DNA from: Abditibacterium sp.
GTDB lineage: Bacteria; Armatimonadota; Abditibacteriia; Abditibacteriales; Abditibacteriaceae
Assembly: GCA_965246885.1 (NCBI GenBank)
Contig: OZ251992.1
Span: forward strand, 1,056,001-1,120,000
Direction: 5' to 3'
DNA length: 64,000 nucleotides
This document shows, piece after piece, positions 30,531 to 47,752 of the stretch; within the stretch, counting starts at the first letter, position 1; the number at the start of each line of letters is the position of its first letter. The notes beneath the pieces are model-generated. The model did not search any database and had not been told where the DNA came from. It saw only the letters and a program-made list of their open reading frames with translations. The position numbers and the translations under genes are program-made.

Positions 30531-33452
30531 ATGCCGCGCCCTAAAACTCCCCTCGACCCGTTTGAACCGTTGGGCGACGACTTCGATGTGCCCGCGTTTG
30601 TCGTTCCCTCGCGCCCGCGCACCCCGTCGCGGCCCCCATCTGCTCGCGCGCCGCGTCCCACTGCCAACCGTCCCACTTCTCCGGCCAAGCGTCCATCCAC
30701 CAACACGCCCCGCGCGAACTTTCAATCGCCTGCCTCGCCGCCTCCCCAGCCTGCGCGCCCGAAAACGGCGCCACGCCTCGCGATGACGTGGACGCCGCCG
30801 CGCCGTTTTGCGCCGCGCGCAGTGCATTATCAAATCGCGGGAGTGGGGTTGCTCGCGCTGTCGGCTCTGCTCTTTTGGAACACGCTGGCGCCCTCGACGG
30901 ACGGGTTGCTCCCGCGCTATGGCGTATTGGCGTTGCGTGGCTTGTTCGGGGCAGGGGCGGTGCTTGTGCCGGTCGCGCTTGGCGCCTTCGGGTGGACGCT
31001 GATTGTCAAACGGCAACGCGCCCGCGCGGGAGCGTTTTGGCGCGGCGCGGGGTTGGCGTTGCTCGTGTTTCTAACACTCCGCGCGTTGCCCGTGCCGAGG
31101 GGCGGCGAGTTCGCGGGGGCCGAGGTGATGCGCGCGCATGGCGGCGTGGTCGGCGCGCTGTCGTCGTGGGTGTTGCGGCGCGTTCTGGGCGAAGTTGGAG
31201 CATATCTGGCGCTTGGCGCCATTGCCGTCGCTTCCCTCCTGTTGTGGAGCGAGCACACTTTGGGCGAACTGGGCGCTCTTGTCGGCAACAAGTGGAGCGA
31301 GTGGCGCGACACTTGGAAAGCGCAACGCGCGCAAAATACGAAGGAAAAGCGGCCCGACCGCTTCTATTCGCGCGACGAGCAGTTGGAACTGTGGCCGCCC
31401 GCACCGCGCGACGCGGACGGCTGGCCGCGCCCCGCTTCGCCCTCGCTCGCCGAAATTCGCGCCCGCAACGCCAAGCGCGCCGACGACGCTTCGCCGTTCC
31501 TGTCCGTTGGCGACTGGTTCCCCGCCAAGAGCGACACCCCGCCCTCTTCCGAGGAATTCCCTGTTTCTTCCGAAGAATTACCTGTTTCTTCCGAAGAATT
31601 ACCTCTGCCGAAGAAAGAAACACGTAATTCTTCGAGTGGCGCGCCTAATTCTTCCGACGGCGCAGCTAATTCCTCCGATGGCGCGCCCCCCGCGACCGAA
31701 GAATTAGCTGCGCCGACCGATGGCGCGGCTAATTCTTCGGTCGGCGCGGCCCGTTCCTCGGCTCCCGCGCACGCGGCGCCGCGCATCGAGATCATCCAAT
31801 CGCCGCCACCGGTTTCGGTTCTCGATTTGGAAGAACTGACCGCCGAAAAAGAACCCGTCTTTTCGCCGCAAGAACTTCTGGAGCAGCAAGCGTTGGAGTC
31901 GGCGGGCGACGGCTCGGAGTTGGACGCGCCGCGCCCGATTCGCATCGAAAAGCCGCGCCGACATTTTGGCGACGGGCCGCTCATGCCAGAGTATTTCGAT
32001 GACGGCGTGCGCGCTCTCGACCCGCCCGTCGCGCCCGATTTGGAGGGCGCCGAGGAAGAGTTGCAGCGCGGCGTTGTCGGCGTGCAAGAAACGCTCGCCG
32101 CCTTCAAAATAGACGCGCGCGTGACCGATGTCAAGCGCGGCCCGGTGATTACCCGCTACGAAGTGCAACCCGCGCCGGGCGTGCGCGTGGCGACGATTGC
32201 TAACCTCGACCGCGACTTGGCGCGCAGTTTAAGCGCTCTCGCCGTTCGCATCGAAGCGCCGGTGCCGGGGAAAAACGTCGTCGGCATCGAAGTGCCCAAC
32301 CGCAAAGTCCACCTCGTCCGCATGCGCGACGTATTGGAGCAGCACGACTTTCTGGCGCACCCGTCGAAGTTAGCGTTTGTGTTGGGGAAGGACATCGCGG
32401 GCCAACCAAAGTGGGGCGACCTCGCCAAAATGCCGCACTTGCTTATCGCGGGCAGCACGAACTCCGGCAAATCGGTGTGCCTGAACTCCATTATTGCCTC
32501 GATTCTCGTGCGAAGCGGCCCAGAAGAAGTGCGCTTTTCGCTCATTGACCCCAAGCGCGTGGAACTGACGCTGTATCGGGGCTTGCCGCATCTAATGCAC
32601 GATGTCGTGGTCGAGCCAAAGCAAGCCGTCGTCGCGCTGCGCCGCGCCATCGAAGAGATGGATAGGCGCTACCGCTTGTTCGCTAACCGGGGGGTGCGCA
32701 ACATCGCGTCGCACAACGCCAAATTGCAAGCGGGCGAGCGGCCCATGCCCTACATCGTCATCGTCATTGATGAGTTGGCCGACCTGATGATGACCGCCGC
32801 CGCCGAGTTCGAGAAGCTCATCTGCCGCCTCGCGCAACTCGCGCGGGCAACGGGTATCCACTTGATCGTTGCGACGCAACGACCAAGTGTAAACGTCATC
32901 ACGGGCGTCATCAAGGCCAACATTCCGGCGCGCATCGCCTTCGCGGTCGCCTCGCAAGTGGACTCCCGCACCATCCTCGACAGCGTGGGCGCCGAACGGC
33001 TGATTGGGAGTGGCGATATGCTGTTCGACGCCAACAACGGCGGCAAATCGGTGCGCATCCAAGGCGCCTTCCTCAGCGAAGAGGAAGTCAACCGCGTGGT
33101 CGAAGTCGTCAAAGCCAACTACGCCGACGAGGACGCCGTTTCCGACGACCTGCCGACCTTCGACCTCTTCGTCGAGGACGAGTCCGACGAAGATGACGCC
33201 CGCTCCGGCGGCTACTCGCCCGACGAAAAGCGCGACTCGCTCTACGCCGACATCGTGGAGTTCTGCCTGCGCCACAACGAAATGAGCGCGAGCAACATCC
33301 AGCGCAAGTTCGGCATCGGCTACCCCCGCGCCGGGAGAATCGTAGACCAATTAGAACGCGCCGGAGTCCTCAGCCCCGCCGACGGGCCAAAACCGAGGAA
33401 GGTGTTGGGGCGGGGCGGCGGGGACGGGAGTGAGGATGAGGAGGACGGATGA
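30531..33452 (+). CDS. ftsK: DNA translocase FtsK/SpoIIIE
   Basis: N-terminal TM region, 'PHLLIAGSTNSGKS', 'IDELADLM', 'ATQRPSV', gamma domain 'IQRKFGIGYPRAGRIVDQLE'. Confidence 0.95.
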   Translation: MPRPKTPLDPFEPLGDDFDVPAFVVPSRPRTPSRPPSARAPRPTANRPTSPAKRPSTNTPRANFQSPASPPPQPARPKTAPRLAMTWTPPRRFAPRAVHYQIAGVGLLALSALLFWNTLAPSTDGLLPRYGVLALRGLFGAGAVLVPVALGAFGWTLIVKRQRARAGAFWRGAGLALLVFLTLRALPVPRGGEFAGAEVMRAHGGVVGALSSWVLRRVLGEVGAYLALGAIAVASLLLWSEHTLGELGALVGNKWSEWRDTWKAQRAQNTKEKRPDRFYSRDEQLELWPPAPRDADGWPRPASPSLAEIRARNAKRADDASPFLSVGDWFPAKSDTPPSSEEFPVSSEELPVSSEELPLPKKETRNSSSGAPNSSDGAANSSDGAPPATEELAAPTDGAANSSVGAARSSAPAHAAPRIEIIQSPPPVSVLDLEELTAEKEPVFSPQELLEQQALESAGDGSELDAPRPIRIEKPRRHFGDGPLMPEYFDDGVRALDPPVAPDLEGAEEELQRGVVGVQETLAAFKIDARVTDVKRGPVITRYEVQPAPGVRVATIANLDRDLARSLSALAVRIEAPVPGKNVVGIEVPNRKVHLVRMRDVLEQHDFLAHPSKLAFVLGKDIAGQPKWGDLAKMPHLLIAGSTNSGKSVCLNSIIASILVRSGPEEVRFSLIDPKRVELTLYRGLPHLMHDVVVEPKQAVVALRRAIEEMDRRYRLFANRGVRNIASHNAKLQAGERPMPYIVIVIDELADLMMTAAAEFEKLICRLAQLARATGIHLIVATQRPSVNVITGVIKANIPARIAFAVASQVDSRTILDSVGAERLIGSGDMLFDANNGGKSVRIQGAFLSEEEVNRVVEVVKANYADEDAVSDDLPTFDLFVEDESDEDDARSGGYSPDEKRDSLYADIVEFCLRHNEMSASNIQRKFGIGYPRAGRIVDQLERAGVLSPADGPKPRKVLGRGGGDGSEDEEDG
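31545..31760 (+). repeat. In-frame 21-bp (7-codon) repeats in the FtsK linker
   Basis: SSEEFPV-SSEELPV-SSEELPL...SSSGAPN-SSDGAAN-SSDGAPP; DNA unit TTCCGAAGAATTACCTGTTTC. Confidence 0.85.
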
Positions 33453-42237: not shown

Positions 42238-43413
42238 ATGAAACATCGCAATCTCGCAGAAGCCACCGTCGCCGCTTTGGACGCCATTTTCCACAAGGGC
42301 GAAGTCGCCGCGCAGGTCGTCGAGCGCACAGTCGGCGCGCAAGTGAAGTGGGGCAAGCGCGACCGCAACCAGTTTGTCGAGGCGGTTTATGAAGTTGTGC
42401 GCTGGCGGCGCCTACTGGAATGGACGGCAGGACGCGCTGATTCGTGGGCGCTGTTAGGCGCGTTCTTGACGCGGCGCGGCGAACAGTTGGCGCAGTGGCC
42501 GGAATGGGCGACACTTGATACTGAAGCGATGCGCGCACGGTTTCAGTCGCCGGATTTGCCGCGCGCACTGCGGGAATCCATACCCGAATGGCTCGACGAC
42601 TACGGCGCCGCGCAACTCGGCGCGCGCTGGGACGCGGATCTATCGGCCTTGAACAAAGAAGCGCCCGTCATTCTTCGCGCTAACACGCTCTTGAGTTCGC
42701 GCGACGAAGTGCGGCGCGAATTGGCGCGGCAGAACATCGAATCCTCTCCCGTCGAAGAGTTGCCTGATGCGCTGCAACTGGTGGGGCGGCCCAAGCTGTC
42801 TTCGCTCGAATTGTTCCGGCGCGGCGCGTTCGAGGTGCAAGACGCCGCTTCTCAACTCGTCGCGCCGTTTTTGGAAGTCGCGCCGGGACACAACGTCGTG
42901 GACGCTTGCGCCGGGGCGGGCGGCAAAACGCTGCATTTCGCGGCGCTCCTCCACAACGACGGCAAGCTGCTCGCGCTCGATGTCTCGCAAGGCAAGTTGG
43001 ACGAATTAGAACGCCGCGCCCGCCGCGCGTCCGCCCACGTCGTCGCGCGCCGCCCCGATAAAAAGTTGCTGCGCGACTCGCGCGCTTTTGCCGACCGCTT
43101 GCTCCTCGATATGCCCTGTTCAGGGAGTGGCACCCTGCGCCGCCAACCCGACTTAAAATGGCGCCTCAGCCCCGATTTCCTCGCGCAGTTGGCCGAAACG
43201 CGCCGCCAAATCTTGCTGGCTTACACGCCCCTGCTGCGTCCCGGTGGCAAGCTGGTCTACGCGACCTGCTCCGTCTTCCCCGACGAAAACGAGTGCGCCG
43301 TCGCCGCCTTTCTCGCCGATAACCCCGCCTTTGAACTCGAAGCCGAGCGCACCATTTCCCCCGCCCAGACCGGCTACGACGGCTTTTACATGGCGCGACT
43401 GGCGAAGAAATAA
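42238..43413 (+). CDS. RsmB/NOP family RNA m5C methyltransferase
   Basis: 'EVQDAASQ', 'DACAGAGGK', 'DMPCSGSG', 'VYATCS', 'DGFY'. Confidence 0.9.
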   Translation: MKHRNLAEATVAALDAIFHKGEVAAQVVERTVGAQVKWGKRDRNQFVEAVYEVVRWRRLLEWTAGRADSWALLGAFLTRRGEQLAQWPEWATLDTEAMRARFQSPDLPRALRESIPEWLDDYGAAQLGARWDADLSALNKEAPVILRANTLLSSRDEVRRELARQNIESSPVEELPDALQLVGRPKLSSLELFRRGAFEVQDAASQLVAPFLEVAPGHNVVDACAGAGGKTLHFAALLHNDGKLLALDVSQGKLDELERRARRASAHVVARRPDKKLLRDSRAFADRLLLDMPCSGSGTLRRQPDLKWRLSPDFLAQLAETRRQILLAYTPLLRPGGKLVYATCSVFPDENECAVAAFLADNPAFELEAERTISPAQTGYDGFYMARLAKK

Positions 43414-43437
43414 ACTAAGGGGTAACTCTCCCACACC

Positions 43438-43734
43438 ATGAAACTCCCTCTTCTCCTCCTCTCCCTCCTCGCGGGCGCGCTATTAGGTTGGCTCAGCATC
43501 GTGGGCGGCATTTGGTTTTTGATGCCCGTCTTCTTAATCTGCGCGGGCATCGTCGCCATCAAGCTCGACGCCGCTTCGCGCTGGCGCATCGCGGCGTTTG
43601 GCGTCGGTTTGCTCGTGGTGTTCGCGCTGCAAGCGAACCAGTTCATCCAAACCATCACGCAAACTCACCGCGAACTCAAAGATCACAAAGTCACCATCAG
43701 CCCGCAGTTCAAGACGCCGCCGCGCGCGTTCTAA
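43438..43734 (+). CDS. Small membrane protein
   Basis: 98 aa with three hydrophobic segments. Confidence 0.65.
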   Translation: MKLPLLLLSLLAGALLGWLSIVGGIWFLMPVFLICAGIVAIKLDAASRWRIAAFGVGLLVVFALQANQFIQTITQTHRELKDHKVTISPQFKTPPRAF

Positions 43735-43737
43735 GGC
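43698..43737 (+). repeat. 40-bp direct repeat, left copy
   Basis: CAGCCCGCAGTTCAAGACGCCGCCGCGCGCGTTCTAAGGC; matches 45494-45533 with one mismatch. Confidence 0.9.
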
Positions 43738-43912
43738 ACAAAACAGCCCCCCGCACCTTGTTTTCGCTTCGCTCGCCTTTGCCTAATGTAGTGATGGAGG
43801 CCCGCAAAGGAGATTGGTCGCAGCGGAAACAAATGACGGACATTAAGTTCTAAGCTGTAGTCGGCTTCGAGATGAAACAAGCTTGTTGCGCCGACGACGG
43901 AGTACAAACCAA

Positions 43913-45436
43913 ATGAACTACTTCCGCAAACACAATACCCGCACACCTCTTCTCGCCGTCGCGTTGATGGCTTCGCTGTGCGCATCGGCTACGCCGCCTG
44001 CGTCCGCGCAATTCGTCGCTCCTTATGGCAGTGGCTACCAAGGCGCAGATGGGATGCAATACAACTCCATGCAAGGTGCGACTATGAGCGTGATGCTGCA
44101 AGGAATGCAGAACATGAGCATGATGCGCTCTTCGATGTATTCGAGCATGAGAAGTTACCACTCGCGCCGCACGCTTTCGGGCGAAGAGTTGCAAGCGCGT
44201 CGCGGTCAGCGCCTGATCAAAGCAGGGCGCGCAACACTTAAATTTCCCATGCGCGCGTGGCCTTCCAATTATTGGATGGCGAACACGCGCGTGAATACAA
44301 GCGTGCCCGCCGCACAAGACCGGCGCACGCGTAGTTCGGGGATGCAGTTGCAGCGCGCCGAGTTCGCTCGTCAAGTCAAAGTGCACGGCGCGCAGTGGGG
44401 CGATATGGCCGACATGATGGCCATTGCAACTGTAATTGCCGTCGAATCTTATACCGGTCGCAAAGTTAACAATGCCGGATTTCGCGCGCAATCGGCGATT
44501 TGGCGCCGCGCGTGGCTCAAAGACGCTTATTTTCAAGGCCGCACCGTTGCCGACAAGCAAAAGTTTTATGAAGGCCAGATTTTACTCGGCGGCACCTATC
44601 CTTGGTGGCTACGCAACGTCAAAGGCGATAGGGCCAACGCCAAAAAACACGCCGCGCGCTTCTTCGATGAGTGGTATAAAGACAAAACTCCCGGCCTTTT
44701 GCGCGACTATGTCAAATATCTGACTGGCAACGGTAGTGATGTACGACTCGCCAGTGCGCCGGTGCCTGCGGGCACTTCCACTGCGACTATCGTTACCGAT
44801 GATACGCCCGATGCGCCGCAAATGACCATCGCACAAGCCAGCGCGTTTGTGCAATACGAACCGGTCGCGCCCAGCGTGTTACCCACGTTGCTCATCGCTC
44901 GATCAAACCGAACCGACCGCCAAAAATCGCTCCAGTTATACGAGGACATAGTTAAAGCGGGCCGCGAAAACTTCCAAAAGCTGTTCGTTTCCGCCAACCA
45001 TCGCCGCGAAGATGTCGCCGACGGTCTAACCTTCGCTTTGATGACGTTCTACTAATTTGAAGCGTCAGCCGCGACGCCCATCGCGGGTCTAACCTTCGCT
45101 TTGATGACGTTCTACACCGCTTATAAAACCGATTCAGGCAACATCTCCGAAGCCGGATTCACGCCGGAAAAGCTGCGGGGCTTGACCCGGCAAATAACGC
45201 TGATGCTGGCTGGTAACCCCAAGTTTCGCGCGCAAAACGCCAGACAAAAACAAACTTTGTTCGAGGGAGCGCTGATGATGGCCATGATTGTCGGGCACCT
45301 CAACGGCCAAGCCCAAAAAACTGGCGACGCCAAACTGCGCACGCAAGCCAAACAATCCGCCCGCAAAGCCTTCAGCTTTATCGTCGGCAAAATGCCCGAT
45401 CAAGTACGACTTTCTGATAATGGTCTCGTGTTTTAA
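43913..45436 (+). pseudogene. Secreted two-domain helical protein (DUF6683-like) interrupted by a 63-bp insertion that introduces TAA at 45053
   Basis: Signal peptide; two related domains ('DMADMMAIA...DKQKFYEG' and 'DVADGLTFA...QKQTLFEG'); the ORFs ending at 45055 and 45436 share a frame. Confidence 0.8.
45023..45115 (+). repeat. Two exact 30-bp direct repeats separated by a unique 33-bp insert
   Basis: GGTCTAACCTTCGCTTTGATGACGTTCTAC at 45023-45052 and 45086-45115. Confidence 0.92.
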
Positions 45437-45493
45437 GCGGCTCCCGTGAGCGCCTGCAAATAAACGATAAAGATCGGAGCGGGCCGCTTCGTG

Positions 45494-45533
45494 CAGCCCG
45501 CAGTTCAAGACGCCGCCCCGCGCGTTCTAAGGC
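45494..45533 (+). repeat. 40-bp direct repeat, right copy
   Basis: CAGCCCGCAGTTCAAGACGCCGCCCCGCGCGTTCTAAGGC. Confidence 0.9.
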
Positions 45534-45655
45534 GTACAGAGTTCAAGCCGTTCTGAAAATATCCCAAGCCAATGGCGAGGATAGTGTCATGCTTGCCGCG
45601 TTGCACCGGGAAAACCCTTGATTTTGGGGTGAACCGGCAGCTATTAGGGCTAACC

Positions 45656-46867
45656 ATGAACATCGGAACCAAGAAATTATTTGATACCTTCCTTTTCGCG
45701 CGGGCGGGTGCCACAACCGCCAAGAAAGACCCGCCCGTTTTCCCCTTGGTCATCGGGCAACAGGTAGAATTGTCCGCAAGCGCCGTGAGCGCGCGCGAAC
45801 TCATCGAGCGGCTGTGCTTTGAACGCTTTCATGGCGTGGTCTACTTTCAGGGCGAGGACGAGCGCGGCTTATTATTGGGCGTGGGTCTAATCGAAGGCGA
45901 CACAGTCACCAACGCCCTGTTTTCGGCGGGGCCGACGCAGTGGGTGGGCGCGGCGGCTTGGACGTTGCTGTGCGCGTCGGATGTGCCCTCGCAGTGCTTG
46001 GCGCTTCGCGTTGAAACCGGCCTCCTCCAAGCCTACAGCGCCCTGCTGTGCCAAACGCCCGCGACTTCCACGTCCGCCGACGCGCGCCGCCTCAAGGCCG
46101 CCGCCCTTACCATGCGCGACAAACGCGCGACCGGCGCCCTGCGCGTGAGTGCGCCCGACCAAACCCTGCTCCAGTTCTTCCACCGGGGCGAGTCGCTGGG
46201 CATTTACACCGTTGACGCCGACGGGCAACTGCTGCGCCGGGCCGAAGGCTTTGAAAGCGCGCCCCTTCCCAACCGTGCCAAGTTGGAAGTCTGGACGCGC
46301 GAGGCCCAATCGCTTTATCATTGCCTTAGCCCGTTTGACAGTCAGCGCACGGGCGTTCTGGCGTGCTTTCTCGATACCGCCTACGCGCTGGGCGCCAACC
46401 TCATGCCACCCGATGCGGTGCGCGCCAACTGGTGCGAAGCCGTCGCGGGCGTGACGCGCGACTTTCCTTGGCTGTCCGAGTTGGGCGAGCCGCGCCTTTT
46501 GGAAGCAACCCCGGCGCGGCGATTGGCAACCTTTCAACGCGCCTTCCGCGATGTGCGCGAAAAACCGGCGGATGTCGCGCGAAGCGCCGGGGCCGTTGTG
46601 GACGCCTTTCTGCTCCCGTTGGCGCGCGGAATCGGCGAGGAACTGTTCGCCGCGCAGTCGCTCCGTGCCCTGTCGCCCGCCGACCAACAGGCGCTCCGGG
46701 AAATGAACGTCGCCTCGCGTTGGCTGCGCGCCGATGCGGACATCGTCCCCGACGCTACCCCCGATGGCGCCGCAACAACCGACCGCGTTCTGAGTGCCGT
46801 TTCCGGCGTCCGCAATTCCAAAGCGACCCGCCGCGTCCGCTCCGACGTTTCCGGCTTCGACTTTTAA
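45656..46867 (+). CDS. Hypothetical protein (possible duplicated DUF4388/PATAN-like domains)
   Basis: 'L...FHGVVYF' and 'M..KRATGALRV...FFHRG' patterns; host-like codon usage. Confidence 0.65.
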   Translation: MNIGTKKLFDTFLFARAGATTAKKDPPVFPLVIGQQVELSASAVSARELIERLCFERFHGVVYFQGEDERGLLLGVGLIEGDTVTNALFSAGPTQWVGAAAWTLLCASDVPSQCLALRVETGLLQAYSALLCQTPATSTSADARRLKAAALTMRDKRATGALRVSAPDQTLLQFFHRGESLGIYTVDADGQLLRRAEGFESAPLPNRAKLEVWTREAQSLYHCLSPFDSQRTGVLACFLDTAYALGANLMPPDAVRANWCEAVAGVTRDFPWLSELGEPRLLEATPARRLATFQRAFRDVREKPADVARSAGAVVDAFLLPLARGIGEELFAAQSLRALSPADQQALREMNVASRWLRADADIVPDATPDGAATTDRVLSAVSGVRNSKATRRVRSDVSGFDF

Positions 46868-46885
46868 CCCATCACCTTTTCCATC

Positions 46886-47752
46886 ATGCCTGCCACCATC
46901 TTAGATTCCCGCTTTATCGCGGCCCAAAAGCGCGACGAACTCGTGCCGCACCTCGAAACTTTCAAGGCCCACATCGGCTACGCGCCCGGTTTGGTCTTGC
47001 TTTGCATCGGCGACGACCCCGCGACCTTCGATTACATCCGCATCGCCGCCGCCCAAGCGCGCCGCGTTGGGATTCGCGCCGTCGGCCACGTCCTCAGCGA
47101 CAAGCTCTCCCTCGAAGAGATCGCCGAGCATATCGAATCGCTCAACGCCGACCCGAAAATCCACGCCGTCGCCCTGCAAACGCCGCTCCCGCCGCACCTG
47201 CACGTCGGCGAAGTCTCGTCCTTCATCCATCCCGACAAGGATGTCGAAGGCTACCACCCGATGAACGCGGGCTACATCCGCCGCAACTCGCCGCGCCTGA
47301 TTCCCACTCCCGCTTTGGGCGCCTTGCAACTGCTCGACGCTTACGGCATTGACCCATCCGGCATGCAAACCGTCATCGTCGGGCGCAACGCCATCATCGG
47401 CAAACCGCTTTCCACGCTCCTCATGGACGTGGACGCGACGGTTATGGTCGCGCATCGCGGCACCGCGAACCTGCAAAGTCTGATTTCCAACGCCGATTTG
47501 CTGATTTTAGGCGCCGCCGTTGACGGGGGATTGCCCGCCAGTTCGCTTAAACCGGGCGTGGTCATTCTCGATTTCGGCATGACCTACGTCGCCGACGGCG
47601 AAGCCGACAAATTGGTGGGCAACGTGGACTTCGACGAAGCCGTCCAAGTCGCCGGAGCCATCACCCCCATGCCCGGCGGCACCGGCCCCATGACCACCAT
47701 CTCGCTCCTCCAAAACACCCTCAAAGCCGCCCTGCTCCAAACCGGAAAGTAA
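46886..47752 (+). CDS. folD: Methylenetetrahydrofolate dehydrogenase/cyclohydrolase family (divergent)
   Basis: 'LNADPKIH...LQTPLP', 'KDVEG', 'GR..IIGKP', 'ITPMPGGTGPMT'. Confidence 0.88.
   Translation: MPATILDSRFIAAQKRDELVPHLETFKAHIGYAPGLVLLCIGDDPATFDYIRIAAAQARRVGIRAVGHVLSDKLSLEEIAEHIESLNADPKIHAVALQTPLPPHLHVGEVSSFIHPDKDVEGYHPMNAGYIRRNSPRLIPTPALGALQLLDAYGIDPSGMQTVIVGRNAIIGKPLSTLLMDVDATVMVAHRGTANLQSLISNADLLILGAAVDGGLPASSLKPGVVILDFGMTYVADGEADKLVGNVDFDEAVQVAGAITPMPGGTGPMTTISLLQNTLKAALLQTGK

Follow-up and report, generated by a model that had tools for sequence, protein, structure and literature searches.

A spacer-sized insertion between 29-bp duplications in a DUF6683-family gene of Abditibacterium sp.: a probable natural off-target integration by a type I-B Cas1–Cas2 complex

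The window analysed here, a stretch of 64 000 nucleotides of Abditibacterium sp. (contig OZ251992.1), contains a gene of the DUF6683 family that is divided by a short unit in which two identical sequences flank a unique one (Table 1). The frame that opens at ATG 43913 encodes 380 amino acids, with an N-terminus that by eye resembles a signal peptide, and closes at an in-frame TAA of the insert (45053–45055), which cuts off the last 106 residues; the in silico removal of 63 bp restores an open reading frame of 486 amino acids. Both halves of the gene match Pfam DUF6683. A paralogue at C1:2714145–2715602, with 29% identity to the 5' half and 49% identity to the C-terminal half, has the duplicated 10-codon segment once and runs uninterrupted across the junction. 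Since this intact paralogue is continuous across the site, the insert can be taken to have truncated a DUF6683 gene, the ancestor of which was presumably continuous.

The gene looks accessory. Its stretch has a GC content of 54–57%, compared with 62.5% for the contig, no DNA-level orthologue was found among 40 relatives, and distant protein homologues are present in four of them. Together with the intact paralogue, this accessory character would explain the persistence of the knockout, and before the insertion the gene would have been both working and dispensable. An empty (pre-insertion) allele was found neither in the 40 relatives, only one of which gave any DNA match, short and spurious, nor in the contigs of either sequencing run, which cannot show a minority allele. 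The scan for promoters and terminators gave results at chance level. The gene is bracketed by a 40-bp direct repeat (39 of 40 positions identical; window 43698–43737 and 45494–45533) that is unique in the genome, and the first copy forms the 3' end of a 98-aa membrane-type ORF; the two copies may have been left by an earlier gene insertion of 1.8 kb. Tandem repeats with a period of 21 bp are abundant throughout the genome, in intergenic or coding DNA (for example, window 31545–31749), and several families of long palindromic elements are also present.

Table 1. Features of the interrupted DUF6683 locus (window positions), the other isolated units of the genome and the candidate scars of congener G009. 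Sizes such as 29+37 denote duplication and insert.
Feature	Position	Strand	Description
DUF6683-family gene, 5' part	43913..45055	+	Two DUF6683-like stretches; ends after 380 aa at the TAA of the insert
Target-site duplication, copy 1	45024..45052	+	29 bp; in register with the CRISPR repeats (identity 15/29 to array 2, 13/29 to array 1)
Inserted spacer-sized DNA	45053..45086	+	34 nt; genome-unique; in-frame TAA at its start
Target-site duplication, copy 2	45087..45115	+	29 bp, identical to copy 1
Stranded 3' part of the gene	45087..45436	+	C-terminal DUF6683 half, Pfam E 4.8e-13
Isolated unit	C1:2628374		29+37; spans the stop codon of a glutaredoxin-like gene
Isolated unit	C1:3123991		29+37; off-register inside array 2; duplicated the last 8 nt of a repeat and 21 nt of a spacer
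Isolated unit	C2:29646		29+37; between two genes; one mismatch
Candidate scars in G009	L047:10153, L049:3045, L084:12406, L048:5333		Duplication + insert

The 30-mers at 45023–45052 and 45086–45115 are identical and enclose 33 unique nucleotides. In the whole genome of about 3.56 Mb (3,555,033 bases in two contigs), the 30-mer occurs twice and the insert once; the next-best matches have ten and nine mismatches, respectively, and no stretch of the insert longer than 15 nt recurs elsewhere. As the period of 63 equals 29 + 34, one base of the 30-mer would be a chance match, probably base 45023, with which the exact identity gains its thirtieth position. A target duplication of 29 bp with a 34-nt spacer (29+34+29) is thus a better reading of the unit than 30+33. 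The preliminary description had reported this unit together with its truncating stop codon and the frame regained on excision, and its coordinates, sequences and reconstruction were all reproduced exactly; its 30+33 geometry holds for the length of the exact repeat, whereas under a type I-B system 29+34 fits the arrays better. The identity of the two copies is the one observation that would speak for a recent insertion.

The locus is present in two public sequencing runs and in no RNA run on record. Contigs from both runs cross the unit without differences or gaps (X1 record 1, 43000–47000; X2 record 11, 44876–45427), both runs being from one study and one of them perhaps the source of the assembly. 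Strain variation at the 40-bp flanking repeats was considered for the uneven depth and contig breaks of run X2 and was rejected, as the five breaks checked fall on GATC; such breaks are expected of a restriction-based library, and the depth of this run is therefore uninformative on allele frequency. These data bear on the reading of the unit as an assembly artefact or as an old 63-bp tandem duplication with one diverged half. A period that is a multiple of three, in a genome rich in 21-mer tandem repeats, would suit the latter. However, beyond the repeat the sequence matches itself at a distance of 63 in fractions of 0.21 and 0.29, as random sequence does, whereas the repeat itself is perfect, and an artefact would hardly give the same allele in the contigs of two runs. 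This explanation is largely refuted and we give it almost no credence.

The genome carries two type I-B loci. The locus at C1:3.124–3.134 Mb comprises cas6, cas7, cas5, cas3, cas4, cas1b and cas2, followed by the short array 2, with a 550-aa ORF without a family match in the position of cas8. Its cas4–cas1–cas2 module is intact, with open frames at C1:3124371–3126334, and Cas1b matches TIGR03641 at 404.6 bits (cut-off 304.1); full-length orthologues of Cas1 with 70–89% identity are present in seven of 12 congeners. The N-terminus of Cas1b (L003:15559–15775, minus strand) carries an acidic stretch of about 50 residues after the first strands and ahead of the Pfam match, and the Cas1 proteins of the congeners align over the same full length. 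The second locus, at C1:2.544–2.552 Mb, has cas6, cas7, cas5, cas3 and cas2 together with an internally deleted cas1 and a cas4 in two pieces, and precedes array 1 (within the segment C1:2529852–2545636, L004), in which 214 repeats of 29 nt, all identical, alternate with 213 spacers of 34–39 nt (three of 34 nt, 13 of 35 nt, 44 of 36 nt, 99 of 37 nt, the mode, 48 of 38 nt and six of 39 nt). Because array 1 adjoins the deleted cas1 and the split cas4, current acquisition there would need the Cas1 of the other locus in trans. Of the two arrays, damage is seen in array 2 (C1:3123973–3124240; L003:13974–14241), the neighbour of the only intact cas1: its leader-proximal repeat is cut to 20 nt, the next 48 nt share a 12-nt word with the following spacer, its last repeat is a 12-nt stub, and an off-register 29+37 insertion lies within it. 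Spacer 127 of array 1 agrees with the chromosome at C1:2002379–2002407 in 27 of 29 nt, which could reflect self-targeting or a prophage.

The unit in the DUF6683 gene corresponds to this machinery in its dimensions. Its duplication is 29 bp plus one ambiguous base, compared with a host repeat of 29 nt, and its 34-nt insert is within the range of host spacers, in the short tail of the distribution (three of the 213 spacers of array 1). The target also resembles the host repeat. In the register that begins at 45024 the matches with the array 2 repeat are at positions 1, 2, 4, 6, 12–18, 20, 24, 28 and 29, and thus take in both ends of the repeat and an unbroken block of 7 nt at positions 12–18; in the alternative register from 45023 the identity is 11/29 (array 2) and 10/29 (array 1). 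The value of 15/29 is the best score among about 120 offsets scanned around the site on both strands. With the arrays masked, 9190 genomic 29-mers reach at least 15 matches, a fraction of 1.3e-3 (0.13%), and the background becomes about 1e-2 (about 1%) by an arithmetic estimate that allows for two registers, two strands and two repeats. The mid-repeat block presumably guided the choice of the site.

Further units were found by scanning the genome for isolated repeats with at least 25/29 identity and periods of 45–99, with array 1 excluded and periodic DNA filtered. The scan gave 13 rows, five of them with at least 28/29 identity and all five with periods of 63–66: one true array 2 unit and four isolated units, namely that in the DUF6683 gene and those at C1:2628374, C1:3123991 and C2:29646 (Table 1). 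Outside the true arrays, all four of the near-perfect isolated repeats with periods of 45–99 thus lie in the CRISPR period band, which occupies six of the 55 periods and would by chance contain all four with a probability of about 1e-4 (an arithmetic estimate that assumes uniform periods). In each of the three other units the duplication is exactly 29 bp without extension and the insert is 37 nt, the modal spacer length. Their targets reach at best 11–13/29 against the repeats, which is not significant after the choice of strand and repeat, and repeat mimicry is therefore shown for the DUF6683 site only. The insertion at C1:2628374 is probably neutral, as the unit spans the stop codon of the gene; no empty allele of this site was found in the 40 relatives, in which the matches end short of the site on both sides. 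Seven weaker repeats (25–27/29, with periods of 62, 63, 63, 78, 99, 99 and 99) were left out of the unit count, and the two with period 63 could be old scars. A 22-bp exact repeat at C1:154255 (period 65, 16/29 like the CRISPR repeat) was rejected as a scar, its core occurring four times at irregular spacing. The surrounding segment, C1:154248–154452 (L010), holds four irregularly spaced copies of a 17–23-nt motif that is absent elsewhere in the genome; the first two copies are 65 bp apart, the first 29-mer agrees with the CRISPR repeat at 16 of 29 positions, and this cluster could be a decayed orphan array.

No source was found for the inserts. The 34-nt insert has no second copy in its own genome and no exact match in viral contigs, its inner 24 nt have no exact match in the JGI metagenomes, and searches of phage and plasmid collections gave matches at chance level only (best E 0.3–0.4); the other three inserts have no matches in viral contigs. 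A protospacer with its PAM was accordingly found in none of the own genome, the viral contigs, the JGI metagenomes and the phage and plasmid collections. The spacer at the DUF6683 site is presumably foreign DNA. That no source was found in the collections searched, and that the exact repeat measures 30 rather than 29 bp, could be accommodated by CRISPR-independent repair or replication, in which a 30-bp duplication with a 33-bp insert would arise by break repair with capture of filler DNA or by template switching. Events of this kind need no dedicated enzyme. However, they would not fix the duplication at 29–30 bp and the insert at 34–37 nt in four of four cases, nor would they yield an in-register match to the host repeat, and the insert has neither a local nor a genomic template, the longest match elsewhere being 15 nt. 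We regard such an origin as very unlikely.

The surroundings of the gene would suit the reading of the unit as the remnant of an integrative or transposable element, in which deletion of the body left 33 bp between two attachment sites or two copies of the target. The gene lies in DNA of low GC content between the two 40-bp direct repeats, and the region has therefore probably seen horizontal transfer. However, the sequence of the insert has no terminal inverted repeats, the genome holds no other copy of it, and the four inserts are unrelated in sequence to one another. The usual target duplications of insertion sequences are far shorter than 29–30 bp. The mobile-element end that the preliminary description had named as a contrary outcome thus did not emerge, and an element remnant is highly improbable here.

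Congeners with the same Cas1b were sampled over 0.8 of 4.8 Mb in G009, 0.4 of 5 Mb in G004 and 0.39 of 8 Mb in G010. The G009 sample contains four isolated units with periods of 66, 66, 69 and 71 and duplications of 27–34 bp with no or one mismatch (by eye). The three candidates with periods of 66–69 have duplications of 30–34 bp, a looser fit to the 29-nt repeat, and the fourth has the period of 71; G009 has one cas1. The candidate at L084:12406 extends over a stop codon and the start codon that follows. The G004 sample gave none in the period band and one at period 90, and the G010 sample gave none in the band. As instances of the same phenomenon, the congener units are suggestive only.

Returning to the DUF6683 site, the preferred reading is an integration product of the host's own adaptation machinery, and two features of the unit bear on its fate. 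Over the last 20 nt, its flank agrees with the two real leader ends at 3/20 and 6/20 positions; the native repeat forms a 9-bp stem (−6.6 kcal/mol, z −2.5), compared with −1.4 (z 0.0) for the copied target. With a flank unlike a leader and a copied target without the native stem, the unit is unlikely to be a working array and would be a dead-end scar. The label of 'neo-array' in the preliminary description was accordingly an overstatement, and of seven features of a neo-CRISPR unit four were found (duplication length, insert length, intact cas1/cas2 and a repeat-like target).

Cas1–Cas2 directs the two 3' ends of a prespacer against opposite strands, at points separated by the length of one repeat, and the target becomes duplicated on repair. 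At this locus, the genome's own type I-B adaptation complex, Cas1b–Cas2, would have made a full-site integration outside its arrays. The prespacer would presumably have been trimmed by Cas4, and the two 3' ends of this 34-nt DNA would have been joined to opposite strands 29 bp apart in a coding stretch whose two ends and middle resemble those of the CRISPR repeat, with gap filling then copying the 29 bp into a duplication. The spacer would have entered in the orientation of transcription of the gene, with a first codon that by chance is a stop. We therefore consider the unit very probably a natural off-target Cas1–Cas2 integration into an ordinary gene, with Cas1–Cas2 as the presumed catalyst. 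The observations in its favour are the geometry, the match in length to the arrays, the in-register likeness to the repeat, the intact cas4–cas1–cas2, the three further units and the continuous paralogue. The off-target reading put forward in the preliminary description is thus supported: the checks that it had proposed revealed intact cas1/cas2 with repeats and spacers of fitting length and three more units of 29+37, its proposed search of the 33-mer for a protospacer and PAM led to no source, and none of the three contrary outcomes that it had named (a genome without Cas1–Cas2 or with arrays of clearly different lengths, an assembly artefact, the end of a known mobile element) was obtained. 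A wider proposal, which we consider doubtful, sees in the scars a mutagenic product of native type I-B adaptation that arises at a low rate throughout the lineage. In this genome the rate would be raised, as the sole intact Cas1b has to serve a cas1-less array of 214 repeats and its cognate array has a broken leader-proximal repeat; integration would then be pushed to repeat mimics and off-register sites, and adaptation would act as a natural process of gene knockout.

Off-target spacer integration has so far been documented mainly with overproduced or purified integrase, and the present locus offers a clear example from nature, in a type I-B system that had not been manipulated. It points to a real cost of adaptation, the truncated gene being the assembled allele in two runs, and the site is a ready-made substrate that hints at which repeat positions Cas1b–Cas2 reads, namely the two ends and positions 12–18. 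The mechanism was already known, there are only four such units in the genome, and the gene looks accessory. Among the titles and openings of abstracts covered by a literature search, with few subscription journals included, none described a natural type I-B event that disrupts a gene.

The closest known case is the type I-E system of E. coli, in which off-target ('non-canonical') spacer integration leads to neo-CRISPR loci (Nivala, Shipman and Church 2018; as cited in bioRxiv 10.1101/148544 and PMC7054753); in that work, Cas1–Cas2 was reportedly overproduced and oligonucleotides were supplied (PMC7054753), and in a 2018 preprint the natural frequency of off-target integration was described as unclear and the evidence in two other species as circumstantial (bioRxiv 10.1101/148544). 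The Abditibacterium unit likewise lies in chromosomal DNA outside CRISPR and pairs an insert of spacer size with a duplication as long as a repeat, but it involves a native type I-B system with Cas4, is the assembled allele of a wild genome and interrupts a gene. In the type III-A system of Thermotoga profunda, the fidelity of integration is HU-dependent and host DNABII proteins limit off-target integration (PMC13769266); that system is type III-A and was studied in vitro, whereas Abditibacterium has type I-B and a genome with one DNABII-family match. With Pyrococcus furiosus Cas1–Cas2 in vitro, full-site integration occurs at non-CRISPR sites that resemble the repeat at the borders and centre; these off-target sites span one repeat-length, carry G or C at their borders and share conserved bases at both ends and in the middle (PMC6698737). 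By eye, the Abditibacterium site has eight of the 13 repeat bases enriched there, the P. furiosus repeat being 30 bp; the archaeal sites are on plasmids in vitro, whereas the present one is an in vivo bacterial scar with a 29-bp ruler. In Haloarcula hispanica, which has the same subtype, mid-repeat motifs set the duplication length, with an essential motif about 10 bp from the start of integration (PMC4872114). The perfect 7-nt block of our target begins at position 12, near the site of that essential motif, although the motifs are not alike in sequence and the block's role in Abditibacterium is putative. The matches of the target at its ends and in its mid-block fit the published determinants, that is, the borders and centre in P. 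furiosus and the mid-repeat motif in H. hispanica.
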